Shown one piece after another: positions 31,557-37,969 of a stretch of 64,000 nt of DNA. Every line of letters starts with the position of its first letter. Within the stretch, counting starts at the first letter, position 1. Both the position numbers and the translations under genes were made by a program. The notes below the pieces were generated by a model. The model saw nothing but the letters and a program-made list of their open reading frames with translations. It was not told where the DNA came from and searched no databases. Origin of the DNA: an uncultured Acidimicrobiia bacterium (GTDB lineage Bacteria; Actinomycetota; Acidimicrobiia; Acidimicrobiales; AC-14); NCBI GenBank assembly GCA_963836205.1, contig CAWIIV010000020.1, forward strand, positions 96,001 through 160,000, in the 5' to 3' direction.

Positions 31557-33293
31557 ATGCCCATGGCCAAGGAACGCGCCCCCGGACGTCCGGTCAGCTT
31601 CGGTTCCGACGGCGCCCTGGACCGGCCCGCATCGGAAGCCGACCTCGACTTCGTCCGCCGGCCCATGGTGCGCTGGCTCGACCCCCACCAGCTCCTCGAC
31701 ACCGCCGGCCGGGTCCTGGCGTCGGGATTCTGGAGCGCCTACACCGACAACCGGGAGCTCCAGGCCATGGTGGCGGCGGGCGTCCACGACCGGACGGCGG
31801 CGTCCGACGTATGGGTCGACTACGTCTCCGACCTGGGCGACGGCTTCAACTCGACGTACACCGTCGCCTACCTGCTGGCCCAGCCCGAACTCGACCTCGA
31901 CGGGGAGCACACCCGGCGGGGACGGATCCTGGTCATGGGCGGCGACCAGGTGTACCCCGTCCCCAAGCGCTCGGAGTACGAGAACCGGCTGCTGGGGCCC
32001 TACCGGGCGGCCATGCCCAACCCGTCGGACGAGAAGCACGACCTGTTCGCCATTCCCGGCAGCCACGACTGGTACGACGGCCTCATCAACTTCACCAACA
32101 TCTTCTGCCGGCGGCGGGAGCTGGGGGCGCTGCGGACGAGCCAGACCCGGAGCTATTTCGCGGTCGCCCTCCCCCACCGCTGGTGGCTGTGGGGCATCGA
32201 CCTCCAGTTCGGGGACTTCATCGACGAGGCCCAGGTCCGCTACTTCAACGACATCGCCAGCGACGCCATGAAGCCGGGCGACCGCATCATCCTGTGCATG
32301 GCCAAGGAGGTCGACAGCGGGCCCAAGAGCGCCGAGGTCTGCTCCGACCGCGACGTCCGGTACCTGGAGCGGGAGGTGGTCGGGCCCGCCGGCGGCCGGA
32401 TCGAGGTGTTCCTGAAGAGCGGGCGCCACTACTACAGCCGCTACGAGGAGGAGGACGGCCGCCAGCTCATCACCGCCGGCGGCGGGGGGTCCTTCCTCCA
32501 CCCCACCCACCAGCTCCCGGAAGGCTCCAGCCCCCACGGCAAGCTCAAGACGAACTACCGGAAGCAGGCGGTCTATCCCACCGAGACGGTGTCGAAGGGG
32601 CTGCGCAAGCGGGTCTTCCTGCTGCCCGCCTACAACCTCCCCCTGGCCGCGGTGCTGGGGATGGTCCACGTGCTGCTGGCCTTCCTCCTGCGGCTGCACC
32701 TGGAGGACCAGTACCTCACGCTCGGGGTCGCCGACCTGTGGCACGCCCTGTGGGAGACGCCGGCCGCCTTCCTGCTGGTCTTCCTCCTCATCACCAGCAT
32801 CGGAGCCATGGTGTTGCTGGCCCACGACGCCGCCGGCTGGCCCCGATTGGCCCTGGGGCTCGTCCACTCCACCCTCCAGGTGGGCGGGCTGGCCTTCGTC
32901 TATCTGGTGGCGTCGCACGGGGCGGCCACGCTGGGGGCCTCGGGCGGGGTGGTGTCGCTCCTCGTCTTCCTCGTCCTCGTGTACCTGATCGGAGGGATCG
33001 GGGGGGTGCTGGGGATCGCGGCCTACTTCTGGGCCACAAACATCCTCGGCTACCACGGCAACGAGGTCTATGCCCCCCTCCACCACGAGGACCTCAAGAA
33101 CTTCCTCCGCCTCCACTTCGAGGCCGACGGCGGTCTGACCATCTACCCCATCGGCATCGACCGGGTCGGCCGCCACTGGAAGCTCAACCCCGAGGGGCCG
33201 GCCGACTCGCCGTGGTTCGTGCCCGACGGCCACAATCCTCCGCGACCCCACCTCATCGAGCCGCCGATCCGGATCAAGGGCGGTCCCGGCTGA
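31557..33293 (+). CDS. Membrane metallophosphoesterase (calcineurin-like)
   Basis: SDLGDG, GGDQVYP, IPGSHDWYDGL, GGGGSFLHPTH, C-terminal TM bundle. Confidence 0.82.
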   Translation: MPMAKERAPGRPVSFGSDGALDRPASEADLDFVRRPMVRWLDPHQLLDTAGRVLASGFWSAYTDNRELQAMVAAGVHDRTAASDVWVDYVSDLGDGFNSTYTVAYLLAQPELDLDGEHTRRGRILVMGGDQVYPVPKRSEYENRLLGPYRAAMPNPSDEKHDLFAIPGSHDWYDGLINFTNIFCRRRELGALRTSQTRSYFAVALPHRWWLWGIDLQFGDFIDEAQVRYFNDIASDAMKPGDRIILCMAKEVDSGPKSAEVCSDRDVRYLEREVVGPAGGRIEVFLKSGRHYYSRYEEEDGRQLITAGGGGSFLHPTHQLPEGSSPHGKLKTNYRKQAVYPTETVSKGLRKRVFLLPAYNLPLAAVLGMVHVLLAFLLRLHLEDQYLTLGVADLWHALWETPAAFLLVFLLITSIGAMVLLAHDAAGWPRLALGLVHSTLQVGGLAFVYLVASHGAATLGASGGVVSLLVFLVLVYLIGGIGGVLGIAAYFWATNILGYHGNEVYAPLHHEDLKNFLRLHFEADGGLTIYPIGIDRVGRHWKLNPEGPADSPWFVPDGHNPPRPHLIEPPIRIKGGPG

Positions 33294-33834: not shown

Positions 33835-34915
33835 GGGACCTCCCTGGTGACGAACGCACTTGACTGCGTTACCAGGGTCCGGAGCAACGCTCCCGGGAGG
33901 GTGCCGACGGTGGCCGGCAGAGTCCGACACGGTGCGGGGACTCACTCCGTGTCGGGCCTGACGATACACCCCTCGCCGGCGCGCGGTCGTCTCTTGGACT
34001 CATCCAGTTGCTGGCCTTCGGCTTCTTGGCCGACGGCGGCGTAGCGATGGTGGTGGTCGGGCCGGATCGGAGCGACGGCGACGGCGATCGCCGCTCGGGT
34101 CGTCGGTACCGTCGATCGTGGCGACGGCAGATCTCCCTCGCGAGGCGAGCGCCATGACAAGGACCGCCGCCGTCCACCAGCAGTATGGACGGCGGCCGAC
34201 GGGCCGATTCGGCGGCGGCCGGGCGCGGACACCGCTGACCCCGTACGGGGCTTTCCGAGGGACCGGCCGATGACGGGGTCAGGATTCAAGTCGACGGAAT
34301 GACGGACGTGGCCGCGGCACGCGGTGGAGGGAGGCATGGCCCCCCTGGGCGGCCGCCATATCGGCTGTCTGGGCGAACTGTCGGTTCGGTCAGCGGCCAT
34401 GGGCCGCTCGACGTGTACCAGCGAGGGCTCCAGCCACGGTCAGGCCTCGCCCGGATCCTGGGCCTCGACTGCCCGCATGAGGCCTGTCGGAGTGTCGGCG
34501 GCGAACGGGTTCCGCCCTGACGGGACCTCGAGCGCGCCTGGCCGAGCGCTGCGGGTCCTCGGAGTGCCCCGCTGTGGGTGGCGTTGGTGCCTGCCCGGCG
34601 GCTGCAGGCGCTGCTGGTACCGGCCGAGGCGCTGCTCGGAGAGGTTGTCGCTTGCCCAGGGTCACGAGGCGACTGTGGTCAGGAATCCGTCCTGAGAGGA
34701 CGACGAGGTGATAGCCGGGGGCGGCCGGGTCGAGACCTCCCGTACAGGAGCGGTGTTTGGGGCGTCGGCCAATGCAGGCTCGGGCTCGAAGGGCTCCCGC
34801 GCGGATCAGCAAGAACCGTTCCTACGGATTCGAGCGCCGCCCTCCGCCTTGGAGGCGCTGGTCTTGGCCAGGGTCCAACGGCCTAGCTTAGGCTGCGGAC
34901 ATCGGGGACGAGGAG

Positions 34916-36457
34916 GTGACACCCGCCGTGGAGATCTACCAGCTTGAGCAGGTCTTCAAGTTGTCGGGCGTGCCGGATCTCACCTTCGTCGAGCCGGTCG
35001 AGTTCACTCGTCTCGTTGTGGCGCTCCGGACACCTGGCCGGGGCGTCGTCATCGAAGGACCATCGGGCATCGGCAAGACAAGCGCCGTCACGAAAGCGCT
35101 CGACAGGATCAGTCCCAACTCCGAACAATTGGCACTCCGTCTCTCGGCGCGAAAGCTCGACGACCGCGAGTTGATCGCCGAGCTCCCAGGCATGGGCGCC
35201 GCGGGTCTAGTCGTTATCGATGACTTCCACCGACTGGACTCAGCGGTCAGACTCTCAATTGCCGACCACTTGAAGGTTCTTGCGGACGAGGAACGCACCG
35301 ACACGAAGATCGTCGTGATCGGAATCAACCAAGCTGGTGAATCGCTTCTTTCGTTCGCTCCGGATCTTAGCGGCCGTATCGAGGTAATCAAGTTCGGAGT
35401 TAACCCTGATGACCGAGTGGAACAACTAGTCGAGCTGGGCAGCAAAGCGCTTAATATCGAGATTCCGATCGGACACGAAATAGTGCGGGCCGCTGATGGC
35501 AGCTTCAACATTGCCCAAATGCTCTGCCACGACGCGTGCTTGACTGCCGATATAACCGCGACTATGTCCGAAGGCGTTTCCTTGGGCGTCTCGTACGAAT
35601 TGGTGAAGGAACGCGTTCTAGACCGTCTCGCGGGATCCTTCTACAAGCGAGCCGAGGTCTTTGCGAAGGGAAAGAAGCTCAGGAGGGAAGGTCGTGCGCC
35701 ATATCTCCAAATCCTTCGTTGGTTGGCAATGAGCGATGAGTGGACCATCGACCTCGACCGGGAGATATCAAAGAACCCAACGCTGCGCGGCAGTGTCAGC
35801 CAAGTGGTCGAGAAGGGTCACCTCGCGAACCATCTTGACGAACACGCGAATCTGCTTGCCGACTTACTCCACTACGACACTGGTGCCCGAGTACTCGCCG
35901 TCGAAGATCCGAAGTTCTTTTTCTTCATCAAGAATCTTGCTTGGAACAGGTTCGCCGAGCGTATTGGCTACTTTGACGTGTCGTTCTCGTCTCGCTATGA
36001 CTTCGCCCTGTCCTTCTCGGGAAGTGATCGCGATATTGCCCAAGCCCTATTCGACGCTCTGTCCGAGCTTGAGTACGAGGTCTTCTACGACAAAAACGAG
36101 CAGGACCGAATACTCGCGGAGAACGTCGAGGAGTACCTGGCGCCGATATATAAGAGCGAGGCGAGCTACGTGATTGCAATCCTGGGACCTGATTATCCGA
36201 AACGCATTTGGACGAAATTCGAGTCCGAGCAGTTTAAGAAGCGTTTCGGTGAACATGCCGTTATTCCGGTCTGGTTCGCGGGACAGGACTATGCCGTGTT
36301 TGACATTTCGCGCGAGGTCGGAGGGGAGACTATCGATCGTGGCGAGCCCATCGAAACGCAGATCGAGGCGATCGCTGAGCGGCTCGCGAAAAAGCTTCGA
36401 GCGCACCGCATTGCGGGCGACGAGGGTCTGGACGCCGAGCCGGTAGTCTTGTCTTGA
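34916..36457 (+). CDS. AAA+/STAND-like NTPase with C-terminal TIR domain
   Basis: Walker A GPSGIGKT, Walker B VVIDDFH; TIR YDFALSFSGSDR...EVFYDK...RIWTKFES; A/T-richer than flanks. Confidence 0.85.
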   Translation: MTPAVEIYQLEQVFKLSGVPDLTFVEPVEFTRLVVALRTPGRGVVIEGPSGIGKTSAVTKALDRISPNSEQLALRLSARKLDDRELIAELPGMGAAGLVVIDDFHRLDSAVRLSIADHLKVLADEERTDTKIVVIGINQAGESLLSFAPDLSGRIEVIKFGVNPDDRVEQLVELGSKALNIEIPIGHEIVRAADGSFNIAQMLCHDACLTADITATMSEGVSLGVSYELVKERVLDRLAGSFYKRAEVFAKGKKLRREGRAPYLQILRWLAMSDEWTIDLDREISKNPTLRGSVSQVVEKGHLANHLDEHANLLADLLHYDTGARVLAVEDPKFFFFIKNLAWNRFAERIGYFDVSFSSRYDFALSFSGSDRDIAQALFDALSELEYEVFYDKNEQDRILAENVEEYLAPIYKSEASYVIAILGPDYPKRIWTKFESEQFKKRFGEHAVIPVWFAGQDYAVFDISREVGGETIDRGEPIETQIEAIAERLAKKLRAHRIAGDEGLDAEPVVLS

Positions 36458-36761: not shown

Positions 36762-36790
36762 TTGACAACCGAACACATGTTCGATAACAT
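36762..36790 (+). promoter_or_regulatory. sigmaA promoter with LexA box in the spacer
   Basis: TTGACA-N17-TAACAT enclosing CGAAC-ACAT-GTTCG; ATG 6 nt downstream (leaderless). Confidence 0.85.
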
Positions 36791-36796
36791 GAGGGT

Positions 36797-37969
36797 ATGT
36801 GGGAAGGGCGGACAGGGGGTCGGCTGGCAGAGGTTGTGACGATGCTGCGCGAGATGGTGTCGGGCTTCGAGCCGGCAGCGCTCGACGGGCCGGCGGCGGT
36901 GGAGGCGTTGGGGCTGTTCGGCGAGGTCGAGCGGCTGGGGGCGGCGGGGGTGGCGCTGGCCGGGGGGCGGGTGGAGGCGACCCGGGCCTGGCAGGGCTCG
37001 GGGACGCGTTCGGCGGCGCATTTCGTGGCCTCCCGCTGGGGGTCGTCGCTGCGCTCGGCGGTGGTGGCGTTGGAGACGGCCCGCCGTCTGGAGTCGCTGC
37101 CGGCGACGGAGGAGGCCCTTCGTTCGGGGAGGCTGTCCCTGGCCCAGGCGAACGAGGTCGCCTCGGTGGCCGGGGATCGGCCCGAGCGCGAGGCCGAGCT
37201 GGTGGCGGCGGCCGGTTCGGAAACCCTGCCGGCGTTGCAGGAGCGGTGCCGGGCGGTGCGGGCCGAGGGATCGGCCGCCTCCGAGGGCTACCGACGAATC
37301 CATCAGCACCGCTACCTGCGGCACTGGAGCGACGAGGAGGGGGCGTTTCGCCTGGAAGCCCGGCTCTGTCCCGACGCGGGGGCCAAGCTGCTGGCCGCGC
37401 TGGGGGCCCACCAGCGACGGATCTTCGCCACCGCCCGGGGCGAGGGCCGGCGGGAGCCCTACGAGGCCTACGCGGCCGACGTCCTGGTGGCGATGGCCTG
37501 CGGTGGTGGAGGCGGGGCGAAGGGACCGGTACCGGTCGTCCACGTCCGGGTCGATCACGCGGCCCTGGTCCGGGGACGGGTCGAGGAGGGCGAGGTGTGC
37601 GACATCCCGGGGGTGGGGCCGATCCCGGTGGCCAGCGCCCGGGCCCTGGCCACCGACGGCATCCTCAAGGTGCTGGTGACCAAGGGCGTCGACGTGGTGG
37701 CGGTGGCCCACGGGGGACGGACCGTCCCCGCCCACGTGCGCTCGGCCCTGGAGACGAGAGATCCGAAGTGCGTGGTCCCCGGCTGCGACGTACGCCAGCG
37801 CCTGGAGATCGACCACCTCGTCTCCTTCGCCCAGGGCGGTCCCACCACGCTGGAGAACCTGGCCCGGCTCTGCCACCGCCACCACGCCCTCAAGACCCAC
37901 CAGGGCTGGGTCCTGGGTGGCCGCCCCGGAGCATGGACATGGGACCCACCACCGGAGATGCCACCGTGA
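36797..37969 (+). CDS. DUF222 / HNH endonuclease (13E12-repeat-like)
   Basis: ALRSGRLSLAQA; RDPKCVVPGC...EIDHLVSFAQGGPTTLENLARLCHRHH. Confidence 0.88.
   Translation: MWEGRTGGRLAEVVTMLREMVSGFEPAALDGPAAVEALGLFGEVERLGAAGVALAGGRVEATRAWQGSGTRSAAHFVASRWGSSLRSAVVALETARRLESLPATEEALRSGRLSLAQANEVASVAGDRPEREAELVAAAGSETLPALQERCRAVRAEGSAASEGYRRIHQHRYLRHWSDEEGAFRLEARLCPDAGAKLLAALGAHQRRIFATARGEGRREPYEAYAADVLVAMACGGGGGAKGPVPVVHVRVDHAALVRGRVEEGEVCDIPGVGPIPVASARALATDGILKVLVTKGVDVVAVAHGGRTVPAHVRSALETRDPKCVVPGCDVRQRLEIDHLVSFAQGGPTTLENLARLCHRHHALKTHQGWVLGGRPGAWTWDPPPEMPP

Follow-up and report, generated by a model that had tools for sequence, protein, structure and literature searches.

A widespread NTPase-winged helix-TIR protein without a repeat sensor as a candidate single-gene phage defence at a variable site of an Acidimicrobiia genome

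Introduction

Defence in which a nucleoside triphosphatase (NTPase) switches a TIR domain is already known, and the STAND antiviral NTPases (Avs, Rst TIR-NLR and TIR-II with ATPase) combine an NTPase, a helical domain and a winged helix with a cell-killing effector. In the available text of the papers that describe them, the effector is N-terminal and a repeat sensor is C-terminal (PMC13581612; PMC9122126; PMC11350192). Here we describe a gene within a 64,000-nucleotide stretch of an uncultured Acidimicrobiia genome (G000; assembly GCA_963836205.1, contig CAWIIV010000020.1, positions 96,001 to 160,000; hereafter the window). Its product shares the NTPase, helical and winged-helix parts of these proteins, and its model aligns with the Avs5 filament (9nc9; Z 12.6 over 263 residues). 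However, the window protein has no C-terminal repeats, and its effector, a TIR domain, stands at the C-terminus and not at the N-terminus. The protein is a member of a widespread minimal family with the order NTPase, winged helix-turn-helix (wHTH) and TIR, and not a one-off. Our reading, to which we assign a probability of about 0.58, is that the gene encodes a single-gene abortive-infection phage defence in which NAD+ cleavage by the TIR domain is switched on by assembly of the NTPase.

Several other described proteins share parts of this arrangement. The same three-part, repeat-free module is found in the archaeal small STAND-like ATPases PAB2304 (2qen) and SSO1545 (2fna) and in Orc1, the best whole-module matches to the window model over residues 11-340. 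These chains have 12-15% identity to the window protein and no TIR, whereas the window protein differs in an Asp-Asp Walker B and in the absence of the sensor-2 Arg. An AAA+ core, a lid and a C-terminal winged helix are common to the window protein and Orc1/Cdc6 (archaeal Orc1 on DNA, 2qby: Z 14.1, root-mean-square deviation (rmsd) 4.7, 272 aligned residues); against the NCBIfam Orc1/Cdc6 profiles the window protein scored 15.7 and 13.3 bits, below the respective cut-offs of 417 and 181.3 bits. DS-41 is a validated single-gene defence protein of 502 residues annotated as an Orc1/Cdc6-like ATPase with a winged helix (PMC13092281; NCBIfam NF053860); its rows in the available supplement of that paper show the ATPase annotation only, whereas the window protein adds a TIR domain. 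The NF053860 profile (cut-off 370 bits) gave no match to the window protein at E 0.1 and none over its cut-off in G000, and matched 2/40 family members weakly (best E 3.3e-6). AbTir-type TIR NADases have the same WxxxE motif as the window protein, but in AbTir an N-terminal coiled coil exerts control, a role that the NTPase module would take in the window protein. The TIR-II proteins of Wang et al. 2024 join TIR and TPR, with or without an ATPase, whereas the window protein has no TPR. In contrast to Thoeris, no ThsA-type effector lies beside the window gene and no partner recurs in 111 loci of homologues; the PADLOC ThsB match to the window protein reached only E 0.0033. The only PADLOC model that matched the NTPase was PDC-S59 (E 9.7e-17, residues 79-274), which also matched 20/22 of the family and sister-clade proteins scanned; the match covers profile positions 136-331 of 428, under half of the profile, and includes neither Walker A nor the TIR domain. 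We found no literature that names PDC-S59.

An initial annotation, made from the sequence alone, had proposed the gene as a candidate for a new system. No full-length match to a named system was found in the PADLOC and NCBIfam checks, and NCBIfam (June 2026) has no family for the window protein; however, the gene belongs to a large family (2,196 homologues, PHROG 6841), with PDC-S59 as a distant relative. Our literature search found no description of the NTPase-wHTH-TIR architecture. It is not described in the available text of PMC13092281, PMC9122126, PMC8195603, PMC13069673, 10.64898/2026.10.19.760177 and 10.64898/2026.10.06.757174, while the figures and tables of PMC11350192 and PMC13581612 may hold one. 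Within the parts of the supplementary files that were available, five homologue accessions are absent from supplement 4 of PMC11350192, six from seven supplements of PMC13581612, and WP_047644722 from the ten DefensePredictor files searched (PMC13092281). The available primers of Wang et al., compared by eye with about 600 nt on each side of a P2-borne homologue, gave no match, a result of low weight. The family may be among the 64 clusters of Wang et al. (PMC11350192), and it may be one of the 589 clades of PMC13581612. This last study, the largest STAND survey consulted, clustered only sensors of at least 400 residues according to its available text, so that short sensorless members fall outside its sensor analysis. 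What appears to be new is a sensorless NTPase-wHTH-TIR family without a named full-length match. If the gene defends, it would show how an NTPase switch that lacks a repeat sensor can recognise infection and act through an effector at its C-terminus, and replication-initiator-like ATPases would be linked to NLR-type immunity.

Results

The window gene encodes an intact NTPase-wHTH-TIR protein

The gene and the parts of its product are as follows.

34916..36457, + strand: NTPase-wHTH-TIR gene, an intact open reading frame (ORF) of 513 residues from GTG 34916, with a probable start at GTG 34928 (509 residues)
34911..34919, + strand: Shine-Dalgarno-like AGGAGGTGA, 8 nt upstream of GTG 34928, read from the sequence, putative in its role
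34937..35665, + strand: AAA+ core and helical lid, residues 8-250, Orc1/Cdc6- or small-STAND-like (structure model, conservation)
35057-35080, + strand: Walker A GPSGIGKT, residues 48-55 (sequence)
35210-35230, + strand: Walker B VVIDDFH, residues 99-105 (sequence)
35375-35377, + strand: invariant R154, at a putative arginine-finger position (conservation)
35666..35704, + strand: conserved basic loop, residues 251-263, at the start of the winged helix (conservation, net charge)
35705..35965, + strand: winged-helix-type domain, about residues 264-350 (best Z 5.7; top rows mostly winged helices)
35990..36406, + strand: C-terminal TIR domain, residues 359-497 (Pfam, profile, structure, conservation)
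36209-36223, + strand: WxxxE motif, W432-E436 (alignment to AbTir WTNYE)

Our reading is carried by the domain order, the conserved ATP site, the conserved WxxxE motif, the lack of a repeat sensor and of a partner gene, and carriage as a lone gene in prophages. Translation probably starts at GTG 34928, because AGGAGGTGA overlaps GTG 34916 and sits 8 nt before GTG 34928, and because P0001, the database copy of the window protein, is 509 residues long; residue numbers throughout refer to the 513-residue frame from GTG 34916. The initial annotation had described an intact 513-residue ORF with both Walker motifs, a helical and winged-helix-like middle, a C-terminal TIR domain with a catalytic-type Glu and no TPR or LRR sensor. 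This architecture was confirmed in each of its parts: the frame and the motifs are present, the structure model and its comparison yield the middle domains, Pfam and the alignment with the AbTir motif yield the TIR domain and its Glu, and no TPR, LRR or WD40 region and no repeat family in Pfam was found in the protein.

The AlphaFold2 model, made with a 92-row alignment, reached a predicted local distance difference test score (pLDDT) of 89.9 and a predicted template-modelling score (pTM) of 0.82, and comprises the NTPase, the helical lid, the winged-helix-type middle and the TIR domain. The NTPase begins at most 10 residues from the N-terminus, and residues 6-503 are all assigned to NTPase, winged helix or TIR. 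When the model was compared with 48,161 chains, the best match was PAB2304 (Z 16.3, rmsd 5.3, 284 aligned, residues 12-340), followed by clamp loaders and ORC subunits and by SSO1545 (Z 14.4, 288 aligned); MuB, TnsC and Avs5 gave Z 12.0-12.6. The ESM Atlas features of residues 1-352 point to unnamed AAA_22/nSTAND1-like clusters. A separate fold of residues 236-358 (pLDDT 96) gave weak matches in a wide VIA search, mostly to winged helices and with Z up to 5.7, and Foldseek with the winged helix alone gave no match at E 0.001; we therefore name no close structural relative for this domain.

Conservation was assessed in 124 full-length sequences and in 79 others (sister-clade, partial and fused). 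In both sets, 97-100% conservation was seen at K54, D102, D103, H105, G136, R154, G175, G195 and Q201. R154 (99-100%) lies at the end of the helix that precedes the last strand. The Walker B motif reads Asp-Asp, with Asp in 99% at position 103, and position 198, the expected site of the sensor-2 Arg, is variable; the Orc1/Cdc6 motifs are a Walker B Asp-Glu and a sensor-2 Arg. The probable position of the GxP motif, a feature of STAND/NLR helical domains, was matched by eye and reads G195-S-F, with Gly in 100% and no Pro. Beyond the ATP site, the basic loop at residues 251-263 has a mean net charge of +3.6 in the 124 full-length members versus -0.4 in the sister clade described below. S293, Q296, K300 and G301 are conserved on or just past helix 288-299 of the winged helix, and for the first three of these residues conservation is restricted to the minimal family.

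The TIR domain matches Pfam TIR_2 at residues 363-455 (E 5.7e-8, above the family cut-off) and the PdTIR structure at Z 13.0, and AbTir is among its closest TIR structures by sequence (E 2.5e-12, family profile). W432-x-x-x-E436 aligns with the WTNYE motif of AbTir; E436 is present in 124/124 full-length sequences (100%) and W432 in 96%. According to the available text of 10.64898/2026.10.06.757174, the AbTir motif (W204-E208) is essential for NADase activity, and the active site arises only between head-to-tail TIRs. We predict that the window TIR is of this NAD-cutting type and has NADase activity.

The minimal family is widespread and has a sister clade with exchangeable ends

A word-indexed protein search scored 7,999 candidates and gave 2,196 homologues, with 83% for the best one, and the homologue loci span actinobacteria, proteobacteria, cyanobacteria, Bacteroidota, acidobacteria and archaea. 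When 1.84 billion representatives were searched with a profile, 427 matched at 1e-30; metagenomes gave homologues of which we kept 80 of 288, and IMG/VR gave 18 homologue contigs (12 after de-duplication). The INPHARED phage set contained only one partial TIR match. PHROG 6841 matches residues 97-484 (E 9.6e-51) as well as 4/4 phage-borne homologues tested, and is probably the NTPase-wHTH-TIR family; this PHROG carries no functional assignment.

In a tree of the module (112 proteins and the query), the minimal NTPase-wHTH-TIR proteins stand apart from a clade of 63 with support 1.0. In this sister clade, the TIR domain directly precedes the module in 46/63 proteins and follows it in 43/63; other members have a calcineurin-like phosphoesterase or Sir2 at the C-terminus, and among the N-terminal additions are DUF4062, Sir2, PNPase, caspase, kinase, HD-CE, EAD1, HsdM and a whole NB-ARC-TPR protein. 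These fused forms come from the best 150 of the 427 profile matches, 60 of which were scanned for domains. TIR, calcineurin-like phosphoesterase and Sir2 are established defence effectors. Because the sister clade has TIR, Sir2 or phosphoesterase at the C-terminal position, this position may act as an effector slot.

Two further observations concern domain additions. In the sister clade (P0185-P0270), a TIR-NTPase-wHTH-TIR cassette is joined to kinases, caspases, PNPase, Sir2, DUF4062, HsdM-HTH or a full TIR-NB-ARC-TPR protein; our literature search found no description of this cassette. Rare members of the minimal family (P0124, P0140, P0141 and, by eye, L119:7509-9464) have an N-terminal receiver or HTH domain, which suggests extra regulation.

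The gene has no recurring partner and is carried alone in prophages

After loci had been collapsed at 90% identity, 111 remained, and no partner gene recurred among them, since the commonest neighbour cluster (HsdM-like) reached only 5/111 loci. The comparison therefore agrees with the earlier proposal that the gene acts singly. In 9/12 viral loci (L116, L117, L119, L120, L121, L123, L125, L126 and L131), the gene stands alone, and its immediate neighbours, named by eye, are virion, packaging or lysis genes. In a P2-like prophage of E. coli, annotation places the homologue WP_047644722.1 between the virion morphogenesis gene and baseplate V. Its exact sequence is present on 299 contigs, and the P2-borne homologue has matches in 2/5,426 complete E. 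coli genomes; blastn of the window gene and of a Pantoea homologue against E. coli genomes gave no match. At all loci with at least 3 kb of flank (64/64), the A/T content of the gene exceeds that of its flanks.

The S-V slot of P2-like prophages holds the gene in Escherichia and Serratia (L120:7986-9491, L131:7983-9506, L140:6001-7527). The slot thus appears as a carrier of defence-type cargo and may merit mining for other defence genes; orf30, gpS and gpV were not found in the available text of Rousset et al. 2022.

Defence genes near homologues were scanned with PADLOC, covering 144 neighbours of 16 loci and 146/284 listed neighbours of 41 loci (mean 6 kb of flank per locus); as a control we took 130/148 ORFs in 10-kb windows (n=18) drawn at random from the same phylum. 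Generic kinase, ABC-ATPase, PolA, WYL, NUDIX and HTH profile matches were dropped from both counts. Restriction-modification (RM), CBASS or ThsB/TIR-type matches were present within 5 kb in 11/57 loci versus 0/18 controls (Fisher p 0.038). Restriction endonuclease, HsdS or SLATT genes adjoin the homologue at L019, L106, L109 and L005, and an HsdS-like gene at L113; Pfam identified the adjoining genes as BglII-type, NgoFVII-type, HsdS and SLATT. The Kitasatospora homologue ROR43394.1 has the accession next to ROR43393.1, which is listed as TIR-II in the available tables of Wang et al. (PMC11350192).

Several loci showed additional features. On a Pantoea plasmid (NZ_CP099730.1; L030:9998-17915), four annotated TIR genes, a CBASS-type phospholipase gene and a macro-domain gene lie within about 8 kb. 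In two unrelated taxa (L010:11653-16795 and L033:114-4660), a ThsB-type TIR gene, an Nmad2 gene and a nucleotide-kinase gene lie near the homologue; this set resembles the DS-4 gene list and, at L010, also has a TIR-SLOG protein. Near the homologue of genome G444, an ORF (L159:1985-3676) is by eye Cas1-like and lies among insertion-type genes. A general rule that homologues mark TIR islands was rejected, as a second TIR was seen in only 7/111 loci with a profile that misses some ThsB types.

Proposed mechanism and alternative explanations

In the mechanism that we propose, the protein would rest as a compact nucleotide-bound monomer whose TIR domain is kept away from other TIRs. An infection cue would then cause nucleotide exchange; this cue would most likely be foreign DNA that is exposed or being replicated and that the basic loop and winged helix recognise. 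The NTPase domains would assemble via R154, as ATPases of the Orc1/Cdc6/TnsC type do, and assembly would align the TIRs head to tail to form a composite active site. NAD+ would be drained, and the infected cell would stop or die. Foreign DNA is favoured as the cue because the module resembles DNA-loading ATPases (Orc1/Cdc6, TnsC, MuB), has an arginine-finger-like residue and bears a family-specific basic surface; we consider the odds of foreign DNA rather than a phage protein to be about even.

A number of points weigh against this reading. Phage protection, NADase activity and oligomerisation are predictions from the sequence. ATP turnover may be slow, because Walker B is Asp-Asp and position 198 has no conserved sensor-2 Arg, and R154 is assigned as an arginine finger by its position. 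The winged helix matches known folds weakly in the model comparison, which leaves DNA binding putative, and STAND winged helices need not bind DNA. The gene is split into two ORFs at 9/111 loci, which may reflect decay or an assembly error. The defence-neighbourhood enrichment, which the initial annotation had proposed as a check, is modest and fragile: it appears in the count given above, but when PDC candidates and an HNH-effector-type match were added, it fell to 14/57 versus 2/18 (p 0.19). It is suggestive only, because the category was set after the matches had been seen, and its control is 18 windows from one phylum. In 46/57 loci there is no RM, CBASS or ThsB/TIR-type neighbour, and we saw no defence gene next to the window copy, where the PADLOC scan covered only the neighbouring DUF222-HNH gene. 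A homodimer prediction for residues 6-497 scored 0.00, which counts neither for nor against assembly.

We hold only tentatively, and as rather doubtful, the wider idea that the module is an initiator-like AAA+ immune switch that would read invading DNA directly through the basic loop and the winged helix, polymerise on it and fire any C-terminal enzyme (TIR, Sir2 or phosphoesterase). Such proteins would form an unnamed class without a repeat sensor or an N-terminal effector, and the sister-clade cassette would be a portable amplifier downstream of other sensors.

It is unlikely that the TIR domain makes a cyclic ADP-ribose-type signal and that the protein is an extra sensor for effectors encoded elsewhere, like the spare ThsB genes in Thoeris. 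W432 matches AbTir W204, which is required for ADP-ribose cyclisation, but AbTir, with the same Trp, nonetheless hydrolyses NAD+ (available text of 10.64898/2026.10.06.757174). TIR, SLOG, SLATT, patatin or caspase genes lie near L010, L007, L012, L005 and L066 and on plasmids H1, H4 and H5, and the family TIR profile gave 10 matches in about 880 kb of flanks (7/111 loci) versus 9 others in the 4.05 Mb of G000; however, no effector recurs among these genes, a lone insert in unrelated prophages could not rely on a host effector, and the C-terminal slot of the sister clade holds the directly acting Sir2 and phosphoesterase domains.

Slightly less probable again is a role centred on mobile DNA, in which the protein would sense incoming plasmids or competing temperate phages, or would be an addiction module of its carrier element, rather than defend against lytic phages. 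Plasmids carry homologues (8 records at 80% coverage or more), other evidence being neighbouring integrase and toxin-antitoxin genes and the presence of homologues in prophages, and the available text of 10.64898/2026.10.19.760177 proposes Orc1/Cdc6-like DNA sensing against selfish elements for other systems. An addiction module is at odds with the absence of an antitoxin partner, and many copies sit among ordinary chromosomal genes; moreover, this role overlaps with the abortive-infection reading if the cue is foreign DNA.

That the cue is metabolic is improbable. Bound ATP or ADP would keep the protein off, and infection-driven nucleotide depletion would free the TIR domain, with no need for a ligand sensor. 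The absence of a sensor domain agrees with this scheme, the Asp-Asp Walker B and the missing sensor-2 Arg suit a binding switch, and the pTM of 0.82 may hint at a fixed closed arrangement. However, the minimal family alone conserves the basic loop and the S293/Q296/K300 surface, a pattern that points to a specific ligand, and the invariant R154 fits ATP-dependent assembly better than ATP-dependent inhibition.

The gene is a recent insertion at a variable site

The features around the gene are as follows.

34389..34529, - strand: remnant of a Ser/Thr protein kinase gene, 66.7% identical over 51 residues to the intact G007 gene
34539..34755, + strand: decayed, frameshifted internal fragment of a DUF222-HNH gene, with 70% DNA identity to the downstream copy and in the same orientation
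36762..36790, + strand: promoter-like TTGACA-17-TAACAT of the DUF222-HNH gene, whose spacer holds a CGAAC-N4-GTTCG box
36797..37969, + strand: intact DUF222-HNH gene of 390 residues, multicopy in G000, a neighbour and not a partner

The foreign codon usage that had been noted is evident: GC content at third codon positions is 0.68 in the window gene versus 0.89-0.97 in five neighbour genes, and the ORF has 56.5% GC versus 71.4% for the genome (G000), where only 0.26% of 1.5-kb segments (n=2,689) are as low. The A/T-richer islet is likewise real, but it is limited to 34.8-36.8 kb, essentially the gene and about 300 bp, with 69-75% GC in the left flank. As to the flanks, both of which had been called decayed, the left one is (two gene remnants), whereas the right one consists of about 340 bp of intergenic DNA followed by the intact DUF222-HNH gene.

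The window gene is a recent, horizontally acquired insertion at a variable site, because the flanks lie close together on one contig without the gene in 5/7 congeneric genomes (G001, G002, G004, G006, G007), 60 relatives yielded no full homologue (one weak match, E 7.3e-4), and a full-length homologue is present in 1/400 other genomes of the phylum. The two remaining congeners, G003 and G005, have widely separated flanks or flanks on different contigs. G001 and G007 have an intact kinase gene at the insertion site, and G001 also has a DUF222-HNH gene there; the window gene may have entered between two DUF222 copies. We rejected a composite element with terminal repeats, as the islet is not bordered by any convincing direct or inverted repeat. 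There is very little likelihood that the family works elsewhere and that the window copy is silent cargo stranded at this site: the upstream patchwork of two gene remnants, the absence of the gene from the 60 relatives and a sigma-70 scan that found no promoter upstream (a scan that misses many actinobacterial promoters) would fit, but the frame is intact, every family-invariant residue is kept and the ribosome-binding site is good. Among sequencing runs, no RNA run was listed as holding the genome, and one DNA run with a small share covered fragments only, which is uninformative.

The DUF222-HNH gene was rejected as a functional partner, as none lies near the gene in 111 other loci and many copies are present in G000. 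The downstream copy has three further copies in G000 at 92-93% and one at 75%, and the gene is multicopy in several congeners too. The repeated unit starts at the promoter, and the CGAAC-N4-GTTCG box, which we take to be an actinobacterial LexA-type box, is present between -35 and -10 in all five close copies (window 36762-37969; G000 C6, C22 and C23), out of 26 such sites across the G000 genome. The DUF222-HNH gene resembles a spreading HNH element under SOS control. A DUF222 directly upstream of a homologue was seen in just one other case, P0279 (Mycolicibacter terrae), a close homologue annotated as a 970-residue read-through fusion behind a DUF222-like gene (by eye).

Further upstream in the window, 31557-33293 is an ORF of 578 residues with no Pfam match at E 0.1. 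It is present in all seven congeners and has, by eye, a metallophosphoesterase-like N-terminus and C-terminal membrane helices.

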